Assembly: GCA_020137815.1 (NCBI GenBank) | Contig: CM035352.1 | Location: 8,866,001 to 8,930,000, forward strand | Length of the DNA stretch: 64,000 nucleotides | Direction: 5' to 3' | Source: Hormiphora californensis | Lineage: Eukaryota > Animalia > Ctenophora | Shown here: positions 13,901 to 56,568 of the stretch, in pieces | Numbering within the stretch: position 1 is the first letter of the stretch | How the letters are laid out: every line of letters begins with the position of its first letter | Notes under the pieces: model-generated | What the model saw: the letters and a program-made list of their open reading frames with translations, nothing else | What the model was told of the DNA's origin: nothing | The model's database searches: none | Position numbers and translations under genes: made by a program

Positions 13901-16900
13901 TTTAATTTCCTTGTTTGATTGGAAGTCACCGTGGAGTTCAGCTGCTGGGTCATTAGTACTTATCCCGGTGAATTGCTTGAACACAGAGCGGCCCAGTGGC
14001 TCGGATGGTAGTGACGCCGGTGAGCCCTCCCGTGTGAAGCGAGAGGCCGGTGGTTCGAGCCTGGGTGACTTTTTGTGCAGTTTTTTGATGGAGTGAGAGG
14101 CTTGTTGTTTTGGTGCCGAGTGGGTGATCCGGTATCTTGGGATTGGGGATTTAGGAGAAGTGAGCTGGCACAGATGCATGTGCATGTGCTTATTCACCCG
14201 GGCCCAGCTAATAAAGTACCAGAAAAGTCCTATAATAAATGTTAAGAGACCTAACACTTGCTCACAGACTACACTCGCTCAGAGCACGTATAACTAAACA
14301 GTTTGATATATGGTCATAACATGGTACAGACAAATTGACCATATATGGTCATAACTTGACTCACCATACATGGTTATAACATGGGTCACATGATCATCAC
14401 GTGCCTACAGTCACGTGATACCATGTCACATCACGTGTTGGTCACGTGACTTGGCACATGATAAATCACGTGATGCACATGATTGGTCATGTGATGTGTC
14501 ACGTGACAACCAACCGTCCAATAGCAGCAGAGTATTCAGGTCACGTGATACCATGTGACGTCACGTGTTGGTCACGTGACTTGGTGCCCCGCCACGTCAC
14601 AGAATCAGGTGCGAGCGGTCCACACTATCTACTCCCCATTACCCCCTGCTACCAATTACCATACATCTTTACTCCTAGCAACAGCGAAAAATAAGAAAAA
14701 AACCGTAAAAACCAAAAGACCACTTCGAAGCTCCCCAGTCACACCTGCTAACTCTCCAGTTACCTCCTTAGTTACCCTAGTTACCTCCTAGTTACCTCCT
14801 AGTTACCTCCTAGTTACCTCCTAGTTACCTCATTGCACAGTAGTGTAGTGTATTTCTGCAGCAGCATCTCGGCCCCAAAACTCATCCCTTTCTCATCCTC
14901 ACCGGCCTTACTGCGCCCTGAGTTCCGGGTATGACGGGGTAGTGATATGAACATACTGATGAGCCGCCACTGGAAACCAAACAGTAGCTTGATGACCGGG
15001 CTAGCGTCCTCTGAGTCTTCAACCTCGCTATGGCTACCTGGAGGAATAGAGCTCAGATAAGTGAACCATGATGATGGTGTGAATTGTGATATGAAGAAAA
15101 AAACAGAAATATAAAATGTGGTATCACATATTACAGAAGGATGGAAAACTGATACGCCGATAACGTTCCCAGGGATTGTAATGACTGCACTTACCCTTGG
15201 AAGCTAGGTGAAGGGCAGTAATGCACTCAGTGGAGTTGGTTGATATTAGACTCTGTAGGAGGTTCAACAAGGGGTTACCACACAACTGATCTTTATCTTC
15301 GTCATCACCCGAACTTGCTGAAATGAAGAGAGGTGTTTTATGAAGGAGTCACCATGACATGCCCGCTCAGATCCCTATCATAGTTTTGAAATGGACGTCG
15401 AAGTCGTCTCTCGAGAAATTTGCTAGGCAACAGTGCTCCTTCATAAAATCTCCTTTATTTGGAGCTATTTTCTCACCATGTTTGGGGCTATTTTATTTTC
15501 TTACCATGTTTCTTATTCTTATCATCTATCTTCTCAAAGTGTAGCTCGCTGTTGATAGCAGCCTGGATAGAATGCTGGATCTCCCACGGTGACAGTAAAC
15601 TCTCAATGAGCAGTCTAAACATGAACCGCTGGCCTGGTGTCCCTACCTCGTCAGATACTATGGGGACCATCTTGGCACGCTCATTTACCTCTGGCAGCAA
15701 TATCATCCAACCTAGGGGGTTTGTGGGGTATTAATATTATCGTCTTTACAAAATTTGGGCTGTTGTATATCAAGATTCAAGAATGGATATTAGTGCGATT
15801 GAGGTTGATATTAGAGAGCATCACTCACCACACTGCAGAGTGTTTTGTGCACACGCCTGTATGTCAGTGTTCACACACGTATCGGTAGCTAGGAACACCA
15901 CTCTATCCTTCAAGGCAGTTAGAAGTCTGGAGGGCAGCACCAGACCCGAATCAGGTCCCTCTAGGACGGCAGCATGAAGCTGGAGAGTGAGGAGTTGAAC
16001 ACACGACATTATCAAACATATCTCCTCTTTAGTCGGATTCAACCACCCCTCGCTCGTTATGTTATCACACACCAGACTCAGCAATCCGGCCAACTTCTCC
16101 ACTGTCTCTACAGAGACGTTTAGGCAGAAGGGTAGACGTGTTCCTATGGATGGATTCTGGGCAGCTGACCAAGCGATGGTGTGGTGGGGTCCACATGTAA
16201 CACCCTTTATATCCCGGCTAACAAGGCTTGATACGGGGGATGCCTGGATAGTGCTGTTGATAACTGTCGTTCCATTACCTGAGACGAGAGGAAAGACTTA
16301 ACAATATATACAACTAAAAGTAGGAGTGATAAAACAAGAATGAATATGGTATAGTTGATTGAACTGCCCGTACTGTCCTTACGATCCCGATTACAAAACA
16401 GGATGAACAGTTCAAAAGTCGAGGGAGATAGTAATAAACAAATATAATACACATACCAAGTTGTCCCTTGTCATTGTGTCCCCAGGTTAAAATAACACCC
16501 TCCCCTGTCAACATGGCAACATGATTCGTACCCCCGCTGACACTGACCACCTTGTGGGTACCAGTGGGCAGTACAGCCGGTTCTTGGACATCCTCCTCTG
16601 CGTCTGGAGTGAGACACCTCCCCCACCAGTACACCCTGCCATCCCGAGTTACGGCCAGGGAGAATTGGAAACCTGCCAACACGTCCACACACACGGGAGG
16701 GATGCCTTCTACGGGCATCAGATGGCAGAAGCTGTTACATGCACCTGTTGTTGCTGAATAATGGGAGATATTTGTATTAAACAGTGTGCTGTTGTTAACA
16801 CCCTCTCTTTCTCGCTGTAACCGAGGTGGGGTTGGTAATACTCGATCAGAAAGTAAAAGGTAGATACAGTCGGACCCCGATTTAACGGCCCCGATTTAGC

Positions 16901-20486: not shown

Positions 20487-20783
20487 CGGTACCGTGATTC
20501 ATGGTCAACCATGGCCTTCATATTTCTAAAATTGAAAGTGTTAACTGGAATTCTACTAAAACTGCACAATGAACTGTGGACCGGCCCTGGTCTCAGACAC
20601 CCAAGGACTCGTCACTCGCTGGGAGGAAGAAGTCTCTAGTCTCTGGCATCTGCTGCCGATACGAGGAGGTTAGCAAGCACTAACCAGCGAAAACCCAAAA
20701 GTGGAAACAAAATGGCTCACATAACCGTTACACTGTACAGAGCAAATGCAAAGCTGGTTGTTATCAGACTTCTTCCTCCCAGC

Positions 20784-20827
20784 GAGTTTCAAACTTTTCA
20801 ACACTACTTTAAACAAATTAATTTGAG
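20784..20827 (+). other. Genomic copy of the ctenophore spliced-leader exon (relic), upstream of the ORF1-only element
   Basis: GAGTTTCAAACTTTTCAACACTACTTTAAACAAATTAATTTGAG; 42 nt identical to the reverse complement of 56173-56214; not followed by GT. SL identity is from recall of published ctenophore SL sequences. Confidence 0.8.
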
Positions 20828-20873
20828 TTTTAGGATAAAGCTGATGTAACAGCCCACGAGGGGCAGAAAGAAA

Positions 20874-21893
20874 ATGGTAAATACGGATAATGAAGAAGAA
20901 GCAACTCCTCGGATTTACCTGGTAGCTCATCCTGGGAAACCGGCTACTGATATTGATAGGAGGAATGTCAACGACTGCCAACATGATACAGTATATTGGG
21001 TAAAAGACTTGTTGTCGGAGTGTTCAGGGTTTGGATACAGTAACCCAGAGGCAGTGAGATATGGAACTGGTCCTCCACCAAGGTCTACCTGGGATGATTT
21101 GGAGGTTCCGTCTGCGAGCAAGCTTAATACGCTGACGAAGAAAAAGCTGTTAGATTTTACTAAGAGGGCGTGTGGTATTTTGCTTGAACAGACATTCCCA
21201 CTAATTCAAAAGTTGCGTGACAAAGGTTGTGAAAGTATGATGGTTAGAGAGTGCAAAGAGGAGCTCAGACAGCACGGAAAGGAGCTAATTAAAGCTCAAC
21301 GAGACCTAGTAGCGGCACAAGAGGAACTACTCAATATCCAGAGGCAGTTGCTTGAAAAGAGGGAGGTTGAGATTACAGCTGTGCAGTCAACGGCACAGCA
21401 AGAAATGAAGAGCTTCTCCTCCGTTTTGAAGGAAGAATGTGCCTCGGCGCTGGCGCCAAAGAAAATTCAATCAGCTATTGTGGCAGCCTCTGAGGACCGT
21501 GGGTGCAACATCATCATCCATGGCCTGGAAGAGTCAATAAATAGTAGCGTGGAGCTTGAAACTCAAGTAGAGTCTCTTCTTGTTGAGCTAGGAGAGACTC
21601 AGAACGTGAAATCAGTGGAGCGCTTGGGAAGGCAGTCTTTAACTGTCAGACCAGTGAAAGTCGTACTGAAGAGCAGAGACGCTCAGATGTCGATCCTGTC
21701 GAAAAAATCCCGACTAAAAAGGACCGGCAAGTTCGATAAGGTCTTCATTTCGCCTGACAGGACTTTGGAGGAACGAAATGAGAGAAGACAGCTTGTTGAT
21801 CGACTGAAGGAAATGGTTCAAAGGTATCCTGGAAAACACTACTTCATTCGTGGGAAAGAGGTGGTGGAAGCACCAGGGACCACTGAGAATTGA
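20874..21893 (+). CDS. LINE ORF1p-like protein (coiled coil + RRM-like + CTD), intronless, 339 aa
   Basis: Heptad coiled coil, then NIIIHGLEES, VERLGR, RPVKVVL and KVFISPDRTLEERNERRQLV: the L1/CR1-type ORF1p pattern. Confidence 0.8.
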   Translation: MVNTDNEEEATPRIYLVAHPGKPATDIDRRNVNDCQHDTVYWVKDLLSECSGFGYSNPEAVRYGTGPPPRSTWDDLEVPSASKLNTLTKKKLLDFTKRACGILLEQTFPLIQKLRDKGCESMMVRECKEELRQHGKELIKAQRDLVAAQEELLNIQRQLLEKREVEITAVQSTAQQEMKSFSSVLKEECASALAPKKIQSAIVAASEDRGCNIIIHGLEESINSSVELETQVESLLVELGETQNVKSVERLGRQSLTVRPVKVVLKSRDAQMSILSKKSRLKRTGKFDKVFISPDRTLEERNERRQLVDRLKEMVQRYPGKHYFIRGKEVVEAPGTTEN

Positions 21894-22039
21894 AATTAAA
21901 TTTGTTGAGTTTAGAAGTGATGAGCGAGGAAAGGACAGTTGAGTTGAAAGGTGGTCATTTGTTTGATAGCCTCAATTATTTTTCAAGTTTCAAGTTTCAA
22001 GTTTCAAGTTTATGTGTGCAGGTCGGCGGAAGTTGGGCC

Positions 22040-22720: not shown

Positions 22721-22912
22721 TTCCCTTCCGAGTTCCGTTTTCTAATTTGAATACAGTTTTTGGTGTGCTTGAAAGTGTTATACCCGTTTTATCACCTCGA
22801 GGCTCCATTTCATGCCTTCCTTATATCCAGGTACAGTTTTACCATGAACAGAAAGTAGCTGCAAACATCAACAGAGAAGAAGAGCACTCTGCACTGAGGT
22901 CGAGCCCCCGTT

Positions 22913-23699
22913 ATGGAGGAAGCAGAACAAGTCCTCTACCGTGGTAAGGTGAAGGATGAAGAAGGAAGATTCGAGGAAGCACTTGAGTTGTACCAACAGG
23001 GACTTGAGAAGTTACTGGAAAAACTGAAACGTAAGTTAATCATAATTGTTAAAAAACTGTGTTTGTCATGGTCTGAGTTACTCTGTAGAGACTAGATAGT
23101 CTATGTCATGTTAGTTTCATTAACAATGATTAACTCCAGAGCCAATGTCTGAATCGACTCGGCTAAAGAAGCGGGAGATAATTGCCACATATATGACCAG
23201 AGCTGAAGCCCTGAAGCGTAAAAAGAACAAAGGTGAGAACAATGTTATTTCTTTAGTTGGTAATGAAATTACCCCTCCACGTGAGCGCCCCCAGTTTACA
23301 ACGTGACTTCGTAACCGATGCAGTTAGACTTCCATCCTGTGTGGTTTTACCCTCACTTCCCGATCAATTACCCCTGTTCTACTAATATTGCTAAATCCTA
23401 TGTGGTGCATTTCAGCGACAGTTCCACACGTGCAGGAGATTCGTATACAGAATGATGAGAGTGGATGGACGTACAGTCGGTTATTTGAGAAACCCCTCCA
23501 TGACTCTCCTTCGCATATCAGAATTCAGGATCCATACCTACACGCCCGGCATCAGGTTGGTGATACTTCGTGGGCTTTGTTTGCCGTGCTGGGCGCGGCT
23601 GGTAGTGTAGGGGTGACTGCGTAACCAAGGCATCAGGTTTAAAATTCTTCTAGCTGAATTCACGTCATAGCTTCATATACCTGTAATTAAATAGCAACA

Positions 23700-29410: not shown

Positions 29411-29477
29411 CTACCTAACTTTATCGGGGCAGATTGTTACTCAGTCAACCTACGTTACCTACGATATACAACTACTA

Positions 29478-30114
29478 CTGGGTGTTCATTTTGGATCTTT
29501 ACAAGCGTTGGCCTTAACCCAGAAAAAAGTTGACAAAATCAGGTCATGAAACTTCATACTTGGACCATTCTATACCCTCATTCAAGGTTCCTAGGGGTTT
29601 TGGAGCTCTAGCACCCCGGGAAGTGTGTTTTTGGCATCAAAACTACCAGAAGGAATTTTTTGCTGGTGCTGAGACTTTGCTAAAATGTTTTTTGAGTATT
29701 TTCTATGTCAATCCTAAAGTTTCATAGAGATTGGATGTGTTTTTCGGACTCAAAATTTCGATAAAAGTGGCTGGAAAGGCTCGAAAACAGCTCAAAAGCG
29801 GCTAAAATTGAGTCTTTCCAGCCACTTTTTACGAAATTTTGAGTCTGAAAAACACATCCAATCTCTATGAAACTTTAGGATTGACATAGAAAATACCCAA
29901 AAAACATTTTAGCAAAGTCTCAGCACCAGCAAAAAATTCCTTCTGGTAGTTTTGATGCCAAAAACACACTTCCCGGGGTGCTAGAGCTCCAAAACACCCA
30001 GGAACCTTGAATGAGGGTATAGAATGGTCCAAGTATGAAGTTTCATGACCTGATCTTGTCAAACTTTTTCTGGGTGAAGCCCAACGCTTGTAAAGATCCA
30101 AAATGAACACCCTG
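29478..30114. mobile_element. Tc1/mariner-type foldback MITE, nearly fully palindromic
   Basis: C(A/T)GGGTGTTCATTTTGGATC termini with flanking TA (29476-77, 30115-16); arms of ~300 bp. Confidence 0.8.
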
Positions 30115-30121
30115 TATATAG

Positions 30122-31098
30122 TAAGGTGATAAGCCAGGAATACCACAAAAAAATTTGTTACAAAGGATTTCCACCTCAAATGTACTCCTAAGGGTCCCCT
30201 CTATCGATTCCAACCAATGTTCATATTTGTTCAGGGGCACGCTAAGGCCTCATTTCCGGGTGGGCGTGGTACCTGTATTTTCAGCCTGAGGCCAAAACCA
30301 TAAGTAGAGAGTAGAGATAAAATCGAGGGCACCAGAGTGATCAGCGTCCTCGCATTAGTGGGGATAGGTGCTGGAATTAAGTCTCTATCTCATCTGGTTA
30401 ATTAGATAATTGGATAATTAGTTTTGCGTATAACCGTTTTTTGGCTATATGGCTATAGCCACTTAGGAATGGTTTAGAGACTTTTCATTGGTGCCATTTT
30501 GTAGGCAAAGCGAATTTATGGGGGGTCGACGTCGGACTTTTAAGCTCTATCTTCAACCGTTTAGCCGTTATTTGGCTTTTAAGATTCTCCAAATGAGCAA
30601 AATACGGTAAAATCCCAGATTTTGAACACCGTTAAACCCAAATAACGGCTAAACGGTTGAAGATAGAGCTTAAAAGTCCGACGTCGACCCCCCATAAATT
30701 CGCTTTGCCTACAAAATGGCACCAATGAAAAGTCTCTAAACCATTCCTAAGTAACTATAGCCATATAGCCAAAAAACGGTTATGCACAAAACTAATTATC
30801 CAATTATCTAATTAACCAGATGAGCTAGAGACTTAATTCCAGCACCTACCCCCACTAATGCGAGGACGCTGATCACTCTGGTGCCCTCGATTTTATCTCT
30901 ACTCCTATTTTAAGGGTACTTATGGTTTTGGCCTCAGGCTGAAAATACAGGTACCACGCCCACCCGGAAATGAGGCCTTAGCACCCCTGAACAAATATGA
31001 ACATTGGTTGGAATCGATAGAGGGGACCCTTAGGAGTACATTTGAGGTGGAAATCCTTTTTTTATGGTTGAGGCTAAAATTTTAGTTAAATCACCTTA
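30122..31098. mobile_element. Long foldback element
   Basis: 30162-~30575 is the inverted copy of ~30635-31059. Outer termini TAAGGTGAT...ATCACCTTA are possibly Kolobok-like (TTAA on the right side only). Confidence 0.7.
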
Positions 31099-42771: not shown

Positions 42772-44659
42772 TCAGAGTGAGGAGAGAATAGCGTCTACCG
42801 CACAACTGAAGTTGTCCACTATCATGGTAGGAGTTACCGTAGCATGGTTCTCATCTTTCTCAGGCCTGCAAGAACCCTCCAATAAGTTTGTAAAAGAGAT
42901 GGTCGAACATCAACAAGGCAACAAGAACCATGTTATTGTGTGAAGAAAACATTTTACAAATAAATAGATGATCACAATCTCTCTCTCATCACCAAATTCG
43001 TTGATCTAAAACCTTATCTAAAACTAACTAATAACTGAATTCGAACCTGAATTTCCCTGTCCTAACAAGAATTCCCTGAAGGCCAGTAGCCATTGAACCA
43101 CCGATATCAGACTCCACATCATCTCCAATCATGACACACTGTGGGTGGTGGTGTGTCAGCACAGTATGGTGGTAATATTATGGGGGAAATACGTCCAATT
43201 ATCATTGTATATTGGTAGTATGCAGAGTGCAGATTGCAGACGTACTGCGACAGAGTAAATTACTTCTTCCATATTCTTCCATATTACTCTTTCTCTCTCA
43301 TTACTCTGAGTGATGAGAGAGAAAAAGGAAAATGGAAAAAAAGTGAACTTTGAACAAAATTTTCCGTTCATTTGTACCTGGTCAGGTGGAATTCCTAAGA
43401 TTTTGGCAGCTTGTGTGAAAAACATGGCGCTTGGTTTCCCAATACACTCCGCCTTGCATTGACTCGAATACTGAAAGTGAGTAAAAAGTAACAAACTTGC
43501 TGTCAGGCAAATGCTCTGACCACAGTTCTCGGGCGCTCCGCGAACTGAGAGAAATGAGAATAGGGTCAGGCCAACGCTCTGACAGCAAACTTGCTACTAT
43601 GTTCATAAACAACCATTTTGTGATAATCTATGGGTTCCATGGAAGGGGATATAAATAGTACTGCTTGTGGTAATATCTGGTTTACAGGGAGGGGATATAG
43701 AGGTTACTGAAACTAGTAAACTGTTACCTCAAGACCAGTCACAAAGCAGCCAACGTCCAGCTTGAGTCCAACCCTCTTATCCTTATAGAATTTACTGAAC
43801 AATGTGTTAGAAACTTTCAACAACAAACGCCATGAAACATGCACGTTGAACTTACCTTTTGCCCAAGCAAAAGAATTTCTTGTCTCCTGAAAATAAGGTT
43901 TTATAGAATCACAATATAATTTGGTTGTTGGTGGGATCAGTCGGTATGTTTTGATTTACTGTACCTTTAACGAGATGTCTGAAAGTGTTGTCCATGGCTT
44001 CGTATGTGAACCCGTCCTCTGCATCTCCGACAATGACTGTATTTGGGTCACTGCTGGATTCCCCAAATTCCTCCTGAACTCGCTTGTGCACCAAGAAGTG
44101 CGGTCTGTATCCCTCGTCTTTTATCAACTGGAAGTGGAGGGGGAGTTTTTGACACTCTTATTAGCTGAGATAGTACAAATCTGTGACCGGTGACGAAAGT
44201 TCCTTTTACAAGAAGGAGAGAACAGTATTCATAGTATCTACAACCATGTAAAGTATTGAAACCTGTTTCATAACCGAGACGGGAGATATTATCATTTCCG
44301 AGGAAACTGGAAATCCAATTCTCTGTAGTTTTTCTGCCATTCGATCAGTCGAATAAGTGCTTTCGTTCGTACAGAGAACTGTTGGTATACCAGATTCCAT
44401 TAACCTGTCAAAATACTTCTAAAAATGACCAGTCGTATTATTAAATTCATTCAAGTTGTTACCTTTTGAAAGCATCAACTGATTGTGAAATAGCGATATC
44501 GTCTCCATCTTCCGTCCCATCTTTCAGCACACCACTAATATCAGTTAGTACTCCTGAGGGGAGTATTTTCTCAATAACCTGTCAATCTGTGGATTTCAAT
44601 CCGCAATCGACACAATCAAAAATTAAAATTATACCTTTCGGTTTAGAGACGAGACTCAT
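42772..44659 (-). CDS. LHPP: Phospholysine phosphohistidine inorganic pyrophosphate phosphatase (HAD class IIA)
   Basis: GVLTDISGVL (motif I), LCTNES, PNTVIVGDAEDGFTYEAMDNTF, LDVGCFVTGLE, IGKPSAMFF, MIGDDVESDIGG, LVRTGKFR, VDNFSCAVDAIL*. Confidence 0.85.
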
Positions 44660-44858
44660 ATCCGCAGTATTTAAATTCCTTATCTATCAAAACAGCGACA
44701 TTAGACAAAAACTACAAGTTTACAAGTTTACAAGTTTACAAGTTTACAAGTTTACAAGTTTACAATTAAAGTTTTATTTATAAAGAAACAGGCCTTCCCT
44801 GAATGGGTCCACCTAAATAAAATTAAGTTGAAAAACTATCCCTTCACACTCACACTCA

Positions 44859-47800
44859 TCAGCACAGCACAGCACATTGAGGCGAAAGGTCATTTGGAAG
44901 TGGCGGGTACCCTCTGACTGGAGGACGATCGTGAAATCCTGTCAAGTAATTGCCCAATGAAGATTTGAACTGATTCAAGCTCACACAAGAATTGACAGCA
45001 GCTGGTAGAGTGTTCCATAAATGAGCTGCTCTTGGACCAAATGAGCAGTGAAATTGATTAGCTCGTTTCGTTTCTGCTCTATAGGGGTAAGGTGGTGGGA
45101 CTATCCGCATACCCAGTCTAGCGTGCTGTTGAAATACTAGGTTGGCAGAGTTAGGTACAAAACCATGAATCGTCTTCCACACATGAATCAGAAAGTAGCG
45201 CTGTCTCCGACGCTGGAGGGACATAAGATTGAGCAATTTCAGTCTATCCCAATAGTCATGACCCTGCATACCATCAAGACGTCTGGTGAAACAACGTTGG
45301 ACATTCTCAATAGCCTTGATATCACCAGCCTTGGAAGGGTTCCAGACTAGGCAACAGTACTCAAGAATAGGCCTGACCAAGGACTTGAAAAGCTGTACCA
45401 TAACCTCCGGAGAACGGTCCCGAAAAACGCTGAATATCCAGCCACTCAAGAGGGAAGCCTTCCGCACTATGATAGAAATGTGCCTCGTCCATGACCCATC
45501 TGAAGACATCTGGACACCCAGATCACGAACATCAGGTTCGGGGGTCAACTGCACACCTGAGCTTGTAGTATATGAAAACACTTCAGCTGCGAAAGGAAAC
45601 TGTCTGAGGATAGCAGACTTATTCAGACTATAGCTCAAGAGCTGAAATTTATCCTCATGTAACTTCATATTGTTCTTCTTTGCCCATTCTGCCACTCTTA
45701 AAAGATCGTTCTGTAGGCACGCCTGGCTAGTCATATCCGAAATAGCTTTCACCAACTTAGTATCGTCAGCAAAAGTTAGACACATGCTACCGTCTAGCAC
45801 TGACTCCAGGTCAAGAATATATATGAGGAAAAGAAGTGGTCCGAGCACACTACCCTGGGCAACCCCACTAAGTACCTCAACCCAGGGTGACCTCACTCCA
45901 TCCACCATTACACACTGATTCCTGCCCAGGATCCACGCACTAATCCACTGAAGGAGTTGACCTCCAATACCATATCGCCTCAATTTAGCTAGCAGAACAT
46001 TGATATCCACTGAATCAAATGCTTTACTAAAATCTAAGTAGATAGCATCGACTTCCTGATCACCGCATAGTTCAGATAGGATGATGTCAACATGGGTTAG
46101 TAGCTGTGTCATGGTACTGCGCCCCTTTCTGAAACCATGCTGTGTGTCACTCTGCAACTCCATCTCGTCCAAGTAGTCACTGATCCGTTTCCTCACCAGC
46201 CGCTCAAACACTTTAGACAGGTGACTTGTTATAGACACTGGGCGATAATTCACAGGTTTCGATTTAGCCCCCTTCTTGAATAACGGTGTTATGAACTGTT
46301 GCTTTAAGCAACTAGGGACAGATCCGTCTTCAAATGACCTGTTCCACAACATCCAAATCGGGTATGCCAGGCTACTGCTGCACTGTTTCAGAACAAAAGA
46401 AGGAATGCAGTCAGGAGGGGATGCTGAAAATGGTTTAAGTTCCTTCAAGCCAGTCTGGATACATTCCTGTGAAAACTCCAAACTTGTCAGGATCTCCCCA
46501 AGGTCCTCCACGTTACCAGCTGCCTCTGCGGGGTCGATAGCGGCAGGATCACTAAAAACGCTGGAAAACTGGTGTTGGAGTAATCCAGCCTTCTCTTGAG
46601 GATCCACAGTTAGTGAACCATCTTCACGCTCAAGGGGTGCAACTGAAGATTTAACCTTTGATTTCCTCTTGACGTGTGAATAAAAGTACTTCGGGTTTTC
46701 TTTAATTACGTCGACAGCCTTCCTCTCTGCCTTCTTGTCCCTTGATATCAAATGGTCCTTTATCCTTCCAATAATCCAGTCCATCTGTGATTTCCATTTG
46801 TTTGAATCGTCCTCTCGTTTAACCAATTTACGTCTCCTGCTGGTTAAGTGTTTCAGTTCTTTGTCCACAAACTCTTTCCTGATTTTCTTCAACCGACAGT
46901 GTGACTTTACAACTTTGAACACTTTGTCACGCATGGCCTCCACAAAAAGGGAACCATCCTCGTCTCCCAGTTCTTCACATTCCGTCAACATTCGATCCCA
47001 ATCAGTAGCCGCTAGTTCCGCATCAATACTAGTGAAGTCAGCCGACTGAAGATCCAATTGACGATAACCCTCAAGTGTACTGGGAAGAAATAAACTTTTA
47101 GGACCGAGAGGGTTGAAAGATAGTTCACATGATACCCAGGAATGATCCGAGATACCCCCATCCGTAATAGAAATATCGCTGAAATATTCTGGACGGTTGG
47201 TAAACACAAGGTCTAGCGTGTTGTTGCCTCTTGTAGGGCCCTCAACAACTTGGGATAGAAAGTTTGCGTCCATGAAATCAGCAACAACATTGTAGTTAGG
47301 CTGATCAACCGGGACAGACGAACCATCAGACCACTGAAAAAGAGGAAAATTAAAATCCCCAGAAATTACGGTACTACCCGCATCCTCCATATCCTTAAAT
47401 CGATAGTGTTTACGCAGTGAATACAGAGCGAATGCAGAGTGAATGCAGAGCGAATGCAGAGTGAATGCAGAGTGAATGCAGAGCGAATGCAGAGTGAATG
47501 CAGAGCGAATGCAGAGTGAATGCAGAGTGAATGCAGAGTGGTTCCAGAGTGAATACGCAGTGAATGCAGAGTGAATACGCAGTGAATACGCAATCATTGG
47601 GGATATCCTACCAGAACTGTTTACGCAGTGAATACAGAGTGAATACGCAGTGAATACAGAGTGAATACGCAGTGAATGCAGAGCGAATACGCAATCATTG
47701 GTAATATCCTACCAGAACTAGAATGTAAATACTAGAATGTAAATACGCAGTGATAAAAAAATTGGATATTGTTGCTACAACCCGAAAAAAAGTGGTTTTG

Positions 47801-50592
47801 TCTCTCTCTCTCTCCCTCTCTATCTCCCTCTCCCTCTCCCTCTCTATCTCTATCTCTATCTCCCTCTCTATCTCTATCTCTATCTCTATCTCTATGTCCC
47901 TCTCTCTATCTCTATCTCCCTCTCCCTCTCTATCTCCCTCTCTATCTCTATCTCCCTCTCTCTATCTCCCTCTCCCTCTCTATCTCCCTCTCTATCTCCC
48001 TCTCTCTCTCCCTCTCTATCTCCCTCTCCCTCTCCCTCTCTATCTCTATCTCTATCTCCCTCTCTATCTCTATCTCTATCTCTATCTCTATGTCCCTCTC
48101 TCTATCTCTATCTCCCTCTCCCTCTCTATCTCCCTCTCTATCTCTATCTCCCTCTCTCTATCTCCCTCTCCCTCTCTATCTCCCTCTCTATCTCCCTCTC
48201 TATCTCCCTCTCTATCTCCCTCTCTATCTCCCTCTCTATATCTATCTCTATCTCTATCTCTATCTCTATCTCTATCTCCCTCTCTCTATCTCTATCTCCC
48301 TCTCTATCGCTATCTCTATCTCTAACTCTCTATCTCTCTATCTCTCTATCTCTCTATCTCTCTATCTCCCTCTCCCTCTCCCTCTCCCTCTCCCTCTCCC
48401 TCTCCCTCTCCCTCTCCCTCTCCCTCTCCCTCTCCCTCTCCCTCTCCCTCTCCCTCTCCCTCTCCCTCTCCCTCTCCCTCTCCCTCTCCCTCTCCCTCTC
48501 CCTCTCCCTCTCCCTCTCCCTCTCCCTCTCCCTCTCCCTCTCCCTCTCCCTCTCCCTCTCCCTCTCCCTCTCCCTCTCCCTCTCCCTCTCCCTCTCCCTC
48601 TCCCTCTCCCTCTCCCTCTCCCTCTCCCTCTCCCTCTCCCTCTCCCTCTCCCTCTCCCTCTCCCTCTCCCTCTCCCTCTCCCTCTCTATCTCTATCTCTA
48701 TCTCTACCTCTATCTCTATCTCTATATCTCTATCTCTATCTCTATCTCTATCTCTATCTCTATCTCTATCTCTATCTCCCTCTCTATCTCCCTCTCTATT
48801 CTTTTCCTGTCTCCAGAATATGTACGAGGGATCAACTACGTGCATAAGGCTGGCGGACAAACTGTCTGAGTCGTTCTGCGTCCTAATCGGCACCGAACAG
48901 GGGCACCCTTTATCCCCCGAACTATTTAAAATGTTTGTTCACGAGCTATCCCATCTTCTCAACGAAACACCAGGAACTTTCCCCCAACTTGACAACAAGC
49001 CAACCAATAACCTGATGTGGGCGGACGACATTGTGGTCCTGGCTCTCAACAAGACTTCTTTACAGTCTCTTCTAGACACCCTGGGTCACTACACAAGGAC
49101 GTGGGAACTTGAAGTTAATATTGACAAAACCCAGGTGTTAGTTTTTAACAAACAGGGCAGACTTCTACCGGAAAGCTATGGATTCAAGCTAAATAACAAA
49201 TCCCTTCAACCAACCAAGCATTATTGCTATCTGGGCCTGATCTTCTCCGCAACAGGTTCCCTCAAACCAGCAATTGAAAACCTATCAACCAAAGGGAAAC
49301 GTGCATGTCTAGTTCTCAAACGTACAATAAACTCACAGGCTCTCTCGGGCTGGAGTCTGATGAAGCTATTCGACCACCTAATTGCTCCCATCCTAACTTA
49401 CGGAGTACCGGTGTGGCTACCCACCACTCAAGCGGCAAGAGCGAGAACCAGAGGAGATCATCTAGACCATAAAGGATACTTCAAGAGACTATCTACCGAT
49501 CATTTTGAACGAGTACACCTTGGATTTCTCAAATGGGTACTGGGTGTGCACAGCAAAACAACCAACACGGCAGTGTACGGAGAAACGGGAAGAGCACCCC
49601 TATCAATCTCGGTCCATCAGCAGTGCTCGAAATATTTCATTAGAGCCCTGTCAAAAGCATCAGATGACCAAGACTCATCTCTACTCGCCCTCGCCGTCCG
49701 TGAACAACGCACTCTCAACCTGGAGTGGTTTGACTTTTGGGACTCCACCCTAAGGATAGGCGGCAGAGACCAACTTGAACATCAACATGTTCACCACTGG
49801 GACGCACTGCGCAGCACCCAATCCAAACTCAATTTCTTCAACACGATTAAACAAGAGTATGGATACTCCCAATACCTGGATCTACGAAGACAAGACAGAA
49901 CACACGTCGCCAAACTGAGACTCAGTGCCCACGACCTCCTTATCGAAACAGGTCGGTACACGGGTGACCTGCGCACATGCCGTTACTGTGTTGACAGATC
50001 AAACGCCGTTACTCTCAACCAGCTACCTATGGTGGACCCTATCTTTGAGGATGAAACACACGCTCTATTTGACTGTCCCGAGTACGAGGAACTGAGAAAG
50101 AACACGCCAGAACTTCTCCAAATATCACTCAAATCCAAAAGCACATCACACATCTTCAATCCCGAACTGATCACACCACTCAACAAATTTCTGGCCGCAT
50201 GTCGCACATATAGATCAGAAAGTCCTGCTAACTGCCTCAGGGCGAAGAACCGGTTCCACTGATAAATCTTCATGTCCGGTGAAGAGTTGCAGCCCACGTT
50301 TATCTAACTCTATCTGCATGCTTGGGTGTGCGTGTGAGTGTGTGTGTGTACGTGTGTGTGTGTGCGTGTGTGGGTTTGACCGGTATGTGCTGTATTAGTT
50401 GGTGATTTTTTTTTGTGCAATATTGCAGTCTCGTTAGAGTTTAGTGGGAGCGTTTTTTGGTGTTTTCGGGTGATTGTGAGTCGGAGTGGGCGTGTGTGCG
50501 TGTACGCGTGTGGGTGATTGTATGCGTGTGTGTTGTGTGTCCGTTTTTTTGTGTGTGTGTGCGTGCGTGAGTGTGTGTGAGCGTGTGTGAGT

Positions 50593-50636
<44 letters not shown>

Positions 50637-53321
50637 GCGTGTGTGTGTGTGTGCGAGTGTGTGTGTATATTCTTTTCTTCCTTTTTTTAGTCCGAACGAG
50701 GTGGTACAATTATTTATTAATTCTCACTGTTTTTCGTTCCATTTATTTTAAACTAAACTAAACTAAACTATCTCCCTCTCTATCTCCCTCTCTATATCTA
50801 TCTCTATCTCTATATCTATCTCTATCTCCCTCTCTCTATCTCCCTCTCCCTCTCTATCTCCCTCTCCCTTTTGTTTGCGTTACCGGCCTCATGCCTGTTT
50901 GCTTGTGACTTACCATAATCGGCCATGTGACCTGCCATAATCGACCATGTGATTCCATAATCGACCTTGTGATCTGTCATAATCGGCGATGTGACCTGTC
51001 ATAATCGGCCATCTGATCTGCTTTAATCGGCCATGCGATCTGCTTTAATCGGCGATATGATCACGACGTGATTATGACCGATCAAGGTCTCGTCTAACAT
51101 TATATGCTATAGCGTGATAGATAGGTTCATGTAACTACCTATCTCTGAAAATAGATAAATGCGAGCAGTGAGATCTTTATTGTATTGTTTTCACTATGAG
51201 TACTACTACTTCTACCTCGTCTACTACTTCTACCTCATCTACCACCATTCAACGAACTCGAACCGCCGCTGCAATGACCCGCCGAGCCAACTTCTCCTCC
51301 AACAATCCTCGTCTACATGAGATTGGATAGAAATAGAGATAGAGAGGGAGAGGGAGAGGGAGATAGAGAGATAGAGAGATAGAGAGATAGAGAGATAGAG
51401 ATAGCGATAGAGAGGGAGAGGGAGATAGAGAGAGGGAGATAGGGATAGAGATAGATATAGAGATAGAGATAGAGATAGAGAGGGAGATAGAGATAGAGAT
51501 AGAGATAGAGATAGAGATAGAGATAGAGAGGGAGAGGGAGAGGGAGATAGAGAGAGGGAGATAGAGATAGATATAGAGATAGATATAGAGATAGAGAGGG
51601 AGATAGAGAGAGGGAGATAGAGATAGATATAGAGAGGGAGATAGAGAGGGAGATAGAGAGGGAGATAGAGAGGGAGAGGGAGATAGAGAGAGGGAGATAG
51701 AGGGAGATAGAGATAGAGATAGAGAGGGAGATAGAGATAGAGATAGAGAGGGAGAGGGAGAGGGAGATAGAGAGGGAGAGAGAGAGAGAGACAAAACCAC
51801 TTTTTTTCGGGTTGTAGCAACAAATATCCAATTTTTTTTTACTACTACTTCTACCTCGTCTACTACTTCTACCTCATCTACCACCATTCAACGAACTCGA
51901 ACCGCCGCTGCAATGACCCGCCGAGCCAACTTCTCCTCCAACAATCCTCGTCTACATGAGATTGGATAGAGATAGAGATAGAGAGGGAGAGGGAGAGGGA
52001 GATAGAGAGATAGAGAGATAGAGAGATAGAGAGATAGAGATAGCGATAGAGAGGGAGAGGGAGATAGAGAGAGGGAGATAGGGATAGAGATAGATATAGA
52101 GATAGAGATAGAGATAGAGAGGGAGATAGAGATAGAGATAGAGATAGAGATAGAGAGGGAGAGGGAGAGGGAGATAGAGAGAGGGAGATAGAGATAGATA
52201 TAGAGATAGATATAGAGATAGAGAGGGAGATAGAGAGAGGGAGATAGAGATAGATATAGAGAGGGAGATAGAGAGGGAGATAGAGAGGGAGATAGAGAGG
52301 GAGAGGGAGATAGAGAGAGGGAGATAGAGGGAGATAGAGATAGAGATAGAGAGGGAGATAGAGATAGAGATAGAGAGGGAGAGGGAGAGGGAGATAGAGA
52401 GGGAGAGAGAGAGAGAGACAAAACCACTTTTTTTCGGGTTGTAGCAACAATATCCAATTTTTTATCACTGCGTATTTACATTCTAGTATTTACATTCTAG
52501 TTCTGGTAGGATATTACCAATGATTGCGTATTCGCTCTGCATTCACTGCGTATTCACTCTGTATTCACTGCGTATTCACTCTGTATTCACTGCGTAAACA
52601 GTTCTGGTAGGATATCCCCAATGATTGCGTATTCACTGCGTATTCACTCTGCATTCACTGCGTATTCACTCTGGAACCACTCTGCATTCACTCTGCATTC
52701 GCTCTGCATTCGCTCTGCATTCACTCTGCATTCACTCTGCATTCGCTCTGCATTCACTCTGCATTCACTCTGCATTCGCTCTGCATTCACTCTGTATTCA
52801 CTGCGTAAACACTATCGATTTAAGGATATGGAGGATGCGGGTAGTACCGAAATTACAACCTCTGATAATCGTCCATCACTGTGTTTATCTATAAAAGTCT
52901 GCAAATTGTCCATCAGCTTTTGAAAGTCTAACACACTTGACTCGGAGCGATACACAGCAGCATAAATAGTGTTTAATTGTTCAACATAGACAGCACACAT
53001 ATTGTTGTTCGCACTCGCAAAATATATACTGTCAGAAACAGCCAGCGAACATTGAACATATAAAGCACAGCCTCCGCCGACTCGGTTTTCTCTATCACTT
53101 CTATATACGTCATACCCTGGTATCTGAACCTGAGCATCAGAATGATAACCCTTAAACCAAGTCTCAGTTACTGCAATGGCTACTATGGGAGTTTTCTCTT
53201 GCGTAACATAGTCTCTTATAAGACCGAGTTTCCAAGCTGTATCACCTGCTGGACTTAAGCTCCTTGCATTAAGCAGTAACAGCTTGCTCGTAGGCGAAAC
53301 AGACCCTAACGTTCCCTCCAC
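44859..53321 (-). CDS. CR1 ORF2 (APE + RT), split by the 47370-52848 insertion
   Basis: Removing the insert and one TSD restores ...[13 protein letters not shown]... in frame between 53321-52849 and 47361-44859. Confidence 0.85.
47370..52848. mobile_element. Merlin-like non-autonomous foldback DNA transposon
   Basis: 8-bp TSD GAAATTAC (47362-69, 52849-56) and GGTAC termini (Merlin GGNRM-type). TIRs of ~0.9 kb are built from a 10-bp GAATGCAGAG-type satellite and TC/TA microsatellite. Internal ~640-bp direct duplication (51201 vs 51841). No transposase. Confidence 0.7.
48799..50769 (+). mobile_element. 5'-truncated copy of the RTEX-like LINE (same family as 5105-14305), with open 480-aa RT C-half at 48820-50262
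   Basis: Near-identical to the reverse complement of ~5130-7065; [24 protein letters not shown]...[10 protein letters not shown]; (AAACT)n tail. Confidence 0.9.
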
Positions 53322-56143
53322 GTTCGTCTCGGCTCTAGTCTCACGTCTAGCATTTCTCTCATTTTCGCGTCCATTCTCGCATCCATCGCCCCCAAGAGTC
53401 TTTCGAAAAAAGCCTGCTCATCAAATGGGGCTGGCTCACGTGCTGCATTGGAGCTCGGCTGCTGGGACCGCGGCATATTAGTGCTACTATCCGTAGTTAT
53501 GAAATGGTTTGGAGTCGAAGGAACACACAGTAGATTTGGGGGCGTTAAAGCACTTTCGATATTAAATCATCATCAGTAACATCCCTACAACGATAAATGT
53601 TAGAAAACACACGATAAAACTAAAACGACGCGAAAAAAAATATAAAGAAAAAATGAAACAGGCCAAAGATAAAAACTCGGGAGACGTCCCAGACCAAAAA
53701 TTAACGAACGACCGCGATACGATTAAGACCCTGCAACCTAGTTCCATACGAGTCAATATAACCCTCTTCCAATCTATCGAGATCGGTTGCGCGACCACTC
53801 TTCACAATACCAACTTTAAAATTGCTAATGGTGAAATCGTCCTTATTAGCGCTACGGTGTTTTAGGAACATGTGGTACGCTAAAGCACTTTGCTCAAATT
53901 CGAGTCCGGTGGTTTTGAATTTCGAGCGGTGTCCGTTTATCCGGATATGGAAGGGTGAGTGGGTCTGTCCAAAGTAACATTCCTCACAAATTGTACATTT
54001 AGCGACATAAATCACCCCCGCTGCTTTGCATGTTAACCTCATGTCCAATCTGGTAGGAGAGCCGTTAACCGTCACTGATTTAGGATCCTCAAACATAAGT
54101 GGGCAAGTCTTACAGCCCTTGCCACCGCACTTTTGGTTCGGAGGAGCTACTGACATTTGGTGCAGAGTGTCCTCACTTACGCTCATAGCCCTATTCCTAA
54201 CTATTTCGCTACCAATAGTAGGGCCTTTTCTGAGTGCTATGATCACCCGGGTTTTAGTACCTGTCACCAGGTCGATACTGGTCTGACAGTCCCTCACCAA
54301 GGCCCGAAGTTCATCTACCTCCTCATAGTAGAGGGTGCTGAATATCAAAGTCTGACCCTCCTCCTTACCATGTTTGTCCATCCTTACCTCACCGGTCGCC
54401 CTCCGTTTCGCCAAGGGCTCCAATTCCTCCAGGAGCACTTCCTCATGACCACTCCTCATCAAGTCCCTCTTAAGTTGGTCTAAATCTCTTTTCAGAGGTG
54501 AGGGTCTAGAATTCCGGTTAACAACTCGAATCATCTGGGACATTACAACAGATCTGAAGACATGTTGGGGATGGAAACTGTCTGTCTTCAGATAGAGGCG
54601 TGCATCAGTCTCCTTCCTAAACAAAGTATAGTCCAAGCCCGTGTTACTGAGATTGAACTTGATGTCCAGGTAGTTAACTTCAGTCCCTATTTGGGAATCT
54701 CCGAAAACGATTCCGAGCGGTGCCGTCATGGAGTTTAAACGGTCAATGTATACACTAAAGGACCTTTCTGTTCCCCTCCAAAAACCCAAAACGTCATCTA
54801 TGAAACGTCTCCAAAATGTAACCTGCTTAGGAATCGCGCCTGGCAGTTTGATGAAAAGAAGGTAATGGAGCGTTATATCTGCAATCTGGCGGGAAATACA
54901 ATTTCCCGTTGGAATTCCTCTCACGCCTTTGTACACTGATCCCTCGAATGTGACAAATGACTCCCTCAGTATCAAAACTGTAAAGTTTCTCACCGTAGTC
55001 GCCACCTTGTGCGGTGTTCTGCACACCCTTAAAGCGTCATCGAGAGCTTCTAGGGCTAGGGAAGGGTCAATACTGGGGTACAATGCAATAACATCAAGTG
55101 TTACTATCCGTAGTTATTGTAGCATAGGATGACATGGTTCTCGGCCTGCCCACGTCAGTTGGCTGGGTGTTATTTCCCTTCACGTTGGCAGGAGCACGAC
55201 GGGTGTTCCTCAGATGTTGAAAACGACAGTCAGTCTTGAGACATTGATGACTGAACTGTGAGGAACGACACAGGGGTGGGTGGAAATAGCGACATTCCTT
55301 ACCCAGCTGACATCCGTACTTCTTCATAGATCCGTGTGAGCAGTACTTCCGGCACAGTGGAGGGTGTGACTTCTGGCAAGCGACTCCGTTGACCATCTTT
55401 GTTCCAGCGCGACCATGCTTGCAGCGATGTTGAAGGTATTGCTGGCACACTGGAATTGGTTTGTCTGCCTCACAATCGATCTGTTTCTCTTTTTCCTTGG
55501 GTAGTACTTTCTCCTTCCTATCACCGGTTGTGGTCACCTCCCCTGGTTTCTCGGCAACCTCAGCTGTCGACAGGAAGCTAAACTTCCTCCTCAAACTGTC
55601 ATCATTTGCCTCGCTAGCTGCACTTTTAGGAGGACTGGCAAACTCCCCGTTTTCGCCAGAGAAAGTTTCCAGTCTGTTCTTTTTCATACAGCCTGAACAA
55701 ATCCAAACAAAACCAGGAATACTACACTTGGGCTGCTGCTGGACTAGCTGGCAGTTGTGGCTACCACCGCCGCAGCTACTGCAGTTAAACCTGGATTTTT
55801 CTCCTCGTTTCAATGAGTAATCCAACTCACAGGCCTCGCAAAACTGAGGGAAGAGACCCTCGATAGCCATGATTAGCCAGTCAATGAGGCTCGATTTGCT
55901 ACGGTACCTTCTGCTGACACCATCGTCGGTCCGGGGCTTACCTCCCAGAAAGACAGCGGCCTCCTCCAGAACGGGAACATCAAACTTGTCCAGGTTGTTC
56001 AGGTTGGTCTGATACTTCTTTGCTGCTGGGTTGTAGGCCTTCAGGACTCGCTTAACCTCATCACCACAATCAGAATCCTTACTTAGCTCTGACAGGATAG
56101 CCTTCTGCTTTCCCAGGATAGCTTTCTCGTTGGCTTCAGACAT
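53306..56143 (-). CDS. CR1 ORF1 (PHD-like + CCCH zinc fingers), split by the Penelope insertion
   Basis: CEAC...CSSCGGGSHNC...WICSGC (PHD-like); CQQYLQHRCKHG...C..SHPPLC and CRYFHPPLC (CCCH). Removing the PLE restores ...TTDSSTNMPRSQ...RTWRER* ending at 53306. Confidence 0.8.
53539..53585 (-). ncRNA. Minimal type I hammerhead ribozyme in the Penelope 3' region
   Basis: Minus strand reads GGGATGTTA-CTGATGA-T-GAT(TTAAT)ATC-GAAA-GTGC-TT-TAACGCCCC: catalytic core boxes, stem I, stem II and a vestigial quasi-palindromic stem III. Confidence 0.7.
53701..55101 (-). CDS. Penelope RT (from the TLDVIALYPSI motif) + GIY-YIG endonuclease
   Basis: TLDVIALYPSI, GIPTGNCIS, WRRFIDDV, NYLDI, YLKTDSFHP, KCGGKGCKTC, GVIYVAKCTICEECYFGQT, RINGH, GLN. 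Confidence 0.9.
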   Translation of the reverse strand, partial: TLDVIALYPSIDPSLALEALDDALRVCRTPHKVATTVRNFTVLILRESFVTFEGSVYKGVRGIPTGNCISRQIADITLHYLLFIKLPGAIPKQVTFWRRFIDDVLGFWRGTERSFSVYIDRLNSMTAPLGIVFGDSQIGTEVNYLDIKFNLSNTGLDYTLFRKETDARLYLKTDSFHPQHVFRSVVMSQMIRVVNRNSRPSPLKRDLDQLKRDLMRSGHEEVLLEELEPLAKRRATGEVRMDKHGKEEGQTLIFSTLYYEEVDELRALVRDCQTSIDLVTGTKTRVIIALRKGPTIGSEIVRNRAMSVSEDTLHQMSVAPPNQKCGGKGCKTCPLMFEDPKSVTVNGSPTRLDMRLTCKAAGVIYVAKCTICEECYFGQTHSPFHIRINGHRSKFKTTGLEFEQSALAYHMFLKHRSANKDDFTISNFKVGIVKSGRATDLDRLEEGYIDSYGTRLQGLNRIAVVR

Positions 56144-56172
56144 AGTTTCCAGGGGTGGTCACTTGTACATGG

Positions 56173-56214
56173 CTCAAATTAATTTGTTTAAAGTAGTGTT
56201 GAAAAGTTTGAAAC
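56173..56214 (-). other. Genomic copy of the spliced-leader exon forming the 5' end of the CR1
   Basis: Minus strand GTTTCAAACTTTTCAACACTACTTTAAACAAATTAATTTGAG, 29 nt before the ORF1 ATG; followed by CC, not GT. Confidence 0.8.
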
Positions 56215-56346
56215 ACTAAAGCTTAAAATGTTAAAATATAAAGCTTAAAATGTTAAAATATGGAGTTTAACTGTCAGCACTCACGGGTTTTTTAATTTTT
56301 TGCCCCCCCCCTTTCGCTCGCAGCTCGCTCGGCGTGATTCAACAAA

Positions 56347-56568
56347 CAGTGGTCATCCGACATAATTGCCACATCTCGACGTGAACTTCGACGTTGAATT
56401 CGACGAGAAATAGCAGGCGTTTGTAGTTATGAACGCCTGCTGTGCGCGGCACATTGGCACGTGCGGCATGGGCAGCAGGCGTTCATAACTACAAACGCCT
56501 GCTATTCCTCGTCGAATTCCACGTCGAAGTTCACGTCGAGATATGGCAATTATGTCGGATGACCACTG
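56347..56568. mobile_element. Palindromic MITE with CAGTGG termini (hAT-like)
   Basis: ~95-bp inverted arms, each with an inner hairpin AGCAGGCGTT...AACGCCTGCT; no clean TSD. Confidence 0.65.

Follow-up and report, generated by a model that had tools for sequence, protein, structure and literature searches.

Several families of ctenophore retroelements begin with the host spliced leader (SL), very probably because the RNA from which they were copied had been trans-spliced before reverse transcription. Judging from the SL ends of different copies, it is also fairly probable that the SL is renewed in each cycle, and we give an even chance to transcription by host read-through in place of an element's own promoter. 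Our starting point is a 64,000-nt stretch of Hormiphora californensis DNA (GenBank contig CM035352.1, positions 8,866,001 to 8,930,000; hereafter the window, numbered from its first letter), in which an initial annotation had described a full-length CR1 retrotransposon headed by the SL. Its proposal that the element RNA was trans-spliced before reverse transcription is strongly supported by the results below; its further suggestion of a promoter-less cycle fed by host read-through stays conjectural.

Both SL copies in the window head retroelements

An exact 42-nt match is shared by positions 56214-56173 (minus strand) and 20786-20827 (plus strand) of the 64-kb window. As first annotated, the former stands 29 nt ahead of an ORF1 start codon at 56143, with no GT after the SL. 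The annotation of the sequence as the ctenophore SL exon proved correct as well: the 44-nt leader printed for H. californensis has the window 42-mer as its 3′ 42 nt (PMC8527503), and the same sequence heads 23 mRNA-type contigs in our survey (see below). The leader occurs on 56% of long cDNA reads and in 718 genomic copies, whose nature is unstated in the available text of that paper, and long reads are thought there to mis-map onto these genomic leaders (PMC8527503). No third SL-like site was seen in the window, the next-best match having 18 mismatches.

Each of the two copies heads a retroelement (2/2). The relic at the start of element 1 (56173..56214, minus strand) comprises the 3′ 42 nt of the published 44-nt leader, and that of element 2 (20784..20827, plus strand) matches over 44 nt. 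The first four of these bases may be target-derived, because the right arm of a 22-bp inverted repeat (20614-20635 and 20766-20787) covers them. The hallmark of an SL RNA gene, a GT donor followed by a structured intron, is absent at both sites. We rejected the reading of the 20786 copy as an SL gene; it heads a second, ORF1-only retroelement. The view that the CR1 element is not inserted in an SL gene also stands, there being no SL-gene upstream or intron sequence alongside it.

Element 1 is a CR1-like LINE

On the minus strand, element 1 consists of the SL, a 29-nt 5′ UTR, ORF1, ORF2 (endonuclease and reverse transcriptase, RT), a short 3′ UTR and a repeat tail. The 5′ UTR (56144..56172) contains a 3-codon upstream ORF (56159-56170) and is shorter than usual in family contigs by ~10 nt ending in AG. 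The 5′ part of ORF1 (55102..56143) is Cys/His-rich, with PHD-like and CCCH-like motifs recognised by eye, and is 46% identical to the ORF1 of metagenome locus L020; Pfam gave no match to element 1 ORF1. There follow, all on the minus strand, a nested 5′-truncated Penelope-like insertion (53485..55101) with a 16-bp target duplication, the end of ORF1 with the start of ORF2, encoding part of the endonuclease (52849..53484), and, beyond a second insertion, the 3′ part of ORF2 with the endonuclease end and the RT (44859..47361) and the 3′ UTR and tail (44717..44858), which has six 8-nt repeats at 44717-44764. RT and GIY-YIG motifs were identified by eye in the Penelope-like fragment, to which Pfam gave no match. 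The second insertion (47370..52848) is a 5.5-kb DNA-transposon-like element whose terminal inverted repeats are ~400 bp long and whose target duplication measures 8 bp; within it lie arrays of microsatellites and a 1.5-kb segment that matches 5560-7066, where a third LINE has its 3′ end, at 96% identity. Without the two insertions, the element measures 4,394 bp, with an ORF1 of 406 codons and an ORF2 frame uninterrupted over 1023 codons. In that sense it is full-length, as had been claimed; as it stands, the copy is dead, because the nested insertions break it.

Pfam recognised an RT in ORF2 (RVT_1, E = 1e-26) and an endonuclease (Exo_endo_phos_2, E = 8e-6, marginally under the curated cut-off). 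The endonuclease domain, at the start of ORF2, is of the APE type rather than restriction-like. Both features of the CR1 group are present, namely an ORF2 with APE endonuclease and RT and a tail of short tandem repeats; for CR1, an octamer tail is named in an abstract. Named homologs of ORF2 come from Mnemiopsis, Bolinopsis and one prokaryote-labelled record, and among the 120 homologs listed none is named as a member of a clade (CR1, L2, Crack or Daphne). We thus call element 1 CR1-like, a label resting on its architecture. A ~22-bp tandem duplication (56215-56265) lies immediately upstream of its 5′ junction. Neither element 1 nor element 2 has a convincing target-site duplication. Long palindromic elements occur elsewhere in the window, at 29476-31059 (two, 640-900 bp) and 56347-56568 (one, 220 bp).

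Element 2 and a third LINE

The body of element 2 (20828..22009, plus strand) is a 1.2-kb unit with a 46-nt UTR, a hairpin, one ORF and no RT. Its UTR holds the hairpin and a 1-codon upstream ORF (20844-20849, plus strand); the main ORF (20874-21893) has 339 codons, and the tail is made of four 7-nt repeats (21982-22009). A structure predicted for the protein (pLDDT 74, pTM only 0.36) gave 10 matches at E ≤ 0.001, all of them human LINE-1 ORF1p, and a sequence search of the PDB using the ORF1-only alignment as query returned nothing relevant. On the predicted model, element 2 is an ORF1-only, non-autonomous retroelement with a LINE ORF1p-like fold.

A decayed LINE at ~5560-14300 (minus strand) is flanked by exons of an RCC1-repeat gene, with which it is in sense. 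It contains a duplicated 5′ segment and a number of long upstream ORFs; the position of its 5′ end is uncertain, and no SL was found there above the shuffled background.

SL heads recur at other loci and in a distant LINE group

Searching metagenome contigs for the exact 3′ 29 nt of the SL, we recovered 34 loci: 23 mRNA-type contigs, one SL-gene/5S array, nine retroelements and one probable retroelement. Decayed relics are missing from these counts, because the pattern required a perfect 3′ end. In the mRNA-type contigs the SL lies at most 6 nt from the contig end and is followed by a continuous ORF; Pfam named a host protein in 20 of the 23 and an RT or endonuclease in none. In the array (L022), SL genes share a 778-bp unit with 5S rRNA, and both of the two copies continue into a GT donor and a folded intron; other animals likewise have SL genes within 5S arrays (PMC2566580). 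In this tandem unit (L022:263-1600) the exon match is 43 nt, so the leading G of the published 44-mer may be cap-derived.

The retroelements comprise a relative of element 1 (L020), two relatives of element 2 (L016, 69% identical, and L032, 28%) and a second LINE group (L003, L007, L008, L015, L021 and L034; LINE group 2), whose distance from element 1 is evident from the 24-28% identity of the element 1 ORF2 to those of L007, L008, L015 and L034. L031 was classed as a probable retroelement by its 5′ motif alone; a high SL score upstream of it was a slicing artefact and was discarded. The SL head is therefore no one-off event, being carried by relatives at other sites and by a distant LINE group. 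Eight loci have at least 17 nt of non-SL upstream flank, and these are seven retroelements, one SL gene and no host-gene retrocopy.

Among viral contigs, the SL pattern found no match and the ORF2 profile no relative. The same profile found 23 loci (L035-L057) of animal-type LINE sequence in prokaryote genome records, likely host contamination; the 17-nt SL end was present in 0 of these 23, a count that is no test of the SL head.

The SL joins the elements at the exon end and its erosion does not build up

In 12 of 12 elements (two in the window and 10 loci, L031 included) the SL match stops where the donor of the SL gene begins, so that comparison with L022 places the join precisely at the exon end, as first supposed. 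All 12 thus have the features of a relic-SL retrocopy, an SL exon at the 5′ end joined at its exon end, and none has SL-gene upstream (300 nt) or intron (110 nt) sequence beside it. An exact copy of the leader at the start of an element was likely copied from leader-spliced RNA. The SL match is 35-44 nt long and reaches at least 41 nt in 9 of the 12; over the first kilobase, six related pairs are 50-81% identical. Most copies lack between 1 and 8 of the first SL bases, and this 5′ erosion does not accumulate across elements, in a sample from which the search pattern excludes decayed relics.

Four sequencing runs aligned on 55880-56190 gave junction contigs with extra nucleotides between the SL and position 56172 (4/4 runs): 10 in X1, X5 and X16, and 9 in X7. 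L020 has the same 10 extra nucleotides, a stretch that ends in AG, and exactly these are missing from the window copy. The simplest reading is that the join in the window copy arose by a later trans-splicing event at this downstream AG, followed by a new insertion, although a deletion at a 2-nt microhomology could also account for the loss. In organism B, one contig passes from ORF1 into the SL without a break. Two contigs diverge from the family into non-SL sequence at 56163 (X1) and 56169 (X5), 9 and 3 nt past the junction, respectively; 5′-truncated copies would look like this, and another 5′ end is possible.

We observed no second SL-like stretch, or stacked relic, within 300 nt downstream of the SL in the 12 elements. 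The ctenophore SL has an AG only at its two ends, so re-splicing would replace the relic and leave no stack. In two RNA-type runs of thin cover (9 and 10 of 30 bins), no listed piece bridged SL and element; at this cover, that is no sign that RNA carrying the junction is lacking.

The region past the SL

Six elements (both window copies, L016, L020, L031 and L032) have an upstream ORF of 1-4 codons past the SL, which is found in only 1 of 23 mRNA-type contigs and in none of the six members of LINE group 2. In four of the six, a GC hairpin (GCCC/GGGC) lies just past the stop of this upstream ORF. The upstream ORF is the only motif conserved past the SL in the six and is common to the CR1-like and ORF1-only families; it looks like a translation or RNA-level signal rather than a promoter. 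Over the first 70 columns past the SL, element 2 and L016 are 98% identical, against 81% over a kilobase, which indicates that the 5′ region is under constraint. An Rfam search returned no ribozyme.

The space ahead of the coding region differs between groups, with less than 50 nt before ORF1 in the element 1 group and 145-215 nt from SL to first ATG in LINE group 2. In four members of the latter (L003, L007, L008 and L034) a conserved pyrimidine-rich AG stands one base before the ORF1 ATG, ~150 nt past the SL, and might act as another acceptor, giving a shorter ORF1 mRNA. The first 351 nt of the L020 record, in element orientation, open with a donor-like GT motif and run into the SL-headed LINE; as its prefix is common to four mRNA-type contigs, the record may stem from a host intron that was transcribed across the element and left unspliced.

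Host transcription and splice acceptors around the elements

Element 1 has a leucine-rich-repeat gene on one side and, on the other, a HAD-family gene (43046..44683, minus strand, exons assigned by hand) with which it is in sense and whose first acceptor follows the element tail by ~30 nt. Element 2 is likewise in sense with a MIT-domain gene (first exon 22831..23029, plus strand), the first acceptor of which comes ~0.8 kb further on. Host precursor RNA should therefore cross the element site in both cases.

Of 23 host acceptors that we identified manually in the window, 20 are CAG and 3 are TAG. The relic, in contrast, ends in GAG, and the join of the window copy used an AAG, bypassing a CAG 4 nt earlier. 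Re-splicing at the relic's own terminal AG may occur, this atypical GAG being a candidate acceptor only. A YAG hexamer is kept directly past the SL in L016, L020, L032 and element 2, which counts against re-splicing, because splicing might be expected to remove it. In Drosophila Sex-lethal, the AG used reportedly lies upstream of the one that defines the site; by analogy, an AG choice of this type might explain the retained YAG.

Explanations of the SL head

How the SL head came about and how it is kept can be explained in several ways. The SL could have been gained once per family by trans-splicing and could now serve as an internal promoter or translation signal, with or without the adjoining motif, its identity being kept by selection. 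In Ascaris the SL exon acts as a promoter element; our literature search on this point found no paper. The terminal GAG of the relic, a poor acceptor, and the constraint seen between the 5′ ends of element 2 and L016 would suit such a captured signal. Without renewal, however, the loss of 1-8 first bases would accumulate, the window join behind a downstream AG is consistent with a later round of splicing, and what is conserved past the SL is an upstream ORF with a hairpin; we consider single capture unlikely. Still less likely, in our estimate, is that the elements are trans-spliced but possess a downstream promoter that starts transcription slightly upstream, in the flank, so that host read-through is unneeded. 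Most characterized LINE 5′ UTRs are active as promoters (PMC2881922), and LINE group 2 would have room for one between SL and first ATG, but the element 1 group has hardly any, and both window copies sit where host transcription should pass.

Two further possibilities have very little probability. Master copies residing in SL RNA genes, as in NeSL and SLACS, might be driven by the SL promoter and seed the dispersed copies: some LINEs do target SL exons specifically (PMC4640811), and our survey covered metagenome contigs rather than a whole genome. Such an origin is difficult to reconcile with the lack of SL-gene promoter or intron flank at the window elements and 10 element loci and with an APE-type endonuclease, and distant groups would all require the same target. 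We give equally small credence to a template switch of the RT onto SL RNA or another mRNA, or to chimeric assembly, a caveat raised for SL-bearing Schistosoma transposons (PMC5832876). These are largely refuted by the exon-end join in all 12 elements, by differing flanks and several record prefixes and by recovery in runs of two organisms.

We postulate instead a cycle built on repeated trans-splicing. A new copy would be transcribed from upstream, most likely within a host precursor RNA, and its SL relic would thereby be part of the discarded outron. The spliceosome would add a fresh capped SL at the terminal AG of the relic, or occasionally at one slightly further downstream. SL and body would then be copied to a new site by target-primed reverse transcription, often with loss of a few 5′ bases, which the next round would restore. 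In its strongest form, to which we give somewhat less than even odds, the LINEs, in two or more distant groups, would have lost their promoters, as would the ORF1-only elements that depend on them. Carried in host precursor RNAs, they would require trans-splicing in every cycle to free, cap and rebuild the 5′ end, and they would make up most of the dispersed copies among the 718 genomic leaders. A point against the postulated cycle is that the sense, upstream placement concerns two elements only.

Implications and comparison with known systems

The SL heads are real, family-wide and present in several LINE groups; a promoter-free cycle dependent on trans-splicing is plausible, if tentative. 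Internal promoters and ribozymes are the known solutions by which LINEs keep their 5′ end, and trans-splicing, if our reading is true, would be a third. SL-bearing animals would then offer LINEs a promoter-free life cycle, tying transposon success to the spread of trans-splicing. The reading also suggests a possible identity for many of the 718 Hormiphora genomic leaders, and the SL head provides a tag for locating full-length LINEs.

In the full-text literature searched, which covers few subscription papers, we found no account of SL-headed LINEs in ctenophores or of SL renewal as a life cycle; the available portions of PMC4558846, PMC8557442 and PMC1925062 hold nothing bearing on the question. 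The idea that SL-headed retrotransposons stem from trans-spliced RNA is already in print in passing, as far as the excerpted sources go, for flatworms and nematodes, precedents that the initial annotation missed. In flatworms, partial leaders next to LTR and LINE sequences at 597 loci were read as integration of trans-spliced RNA (PMC12582326), and six SL-bearing elements of Schistosoma received the same reading (PMC5832876). The flatworm loci likewise have genomic SL sequence adjoining retrotransposons, noted in passing and set aside in the text available, which describes neither the 5′ structure of whole families nor renewal nor a life cycle; the ctenophore relics, on the other hand, are near complete and, in several families of another phylum, stand precisely at the 5′ end.

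In LTR elements the promoter is part of the LTR itself. Among these, PAO retrotransposons of Brugia malayi are flanked by SL1, which was added to the expressed element and integrated (PMC7181701); on the evidence of the passages available, the SL on an expressed and then integrated retrotransposon is the shared feature, while the ctenophore elements are non-LTR and have a very short UTR. In Hydra, ~30% of long reads from transposable elements carry the SL (PMC12220107), so that trans-spliced element transcripts exist at the RNA level, and genomic SL heads are absent from the available part of that account. Relic-SL retrogenes of dinoflagellates (PMC3942190) are similarly traces of trans-splicing followed by reverse transcription. 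From what the source excerpts describe, their cargo is host genes and their relics are stacked; in our ctenophore data none of the eight clearly flanked loci is a host-gene retrocopy and no stack is seen.

ORF1-only elements such as element 2 have known counterparts in those of the HAL1 type. Element 2, L016 and L032 share with HAL1-type elements the presence of an ORF1-like protein only and a repeat tail, and differ in the SL head and in having no identified mobilising partner.

NeSL and SLACS/CRE, which insert into SL genes with a restriction-like endonuclease (PMC4640811), are also LINEs tied to the SL; compared with them as the consulted text describes them, the ctenophore elements have an APE endonuclease and no SL-gene flanks. 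The proposed cycle resembles that of R2 and other co-transcribed non-LTR elements, which are freed by a 5′ ribozyme (PMC2881922, PMC8501958). In the portions of those papers at hand, as in our proposal, a LINE is cut from a host transcript by processing of its 5′ end. The ctenophore elements differ in their dispersed insertion and in giving no ribozyme match in Rfam, and the cutter would be the host spliceosome, which would provide the cap as well.
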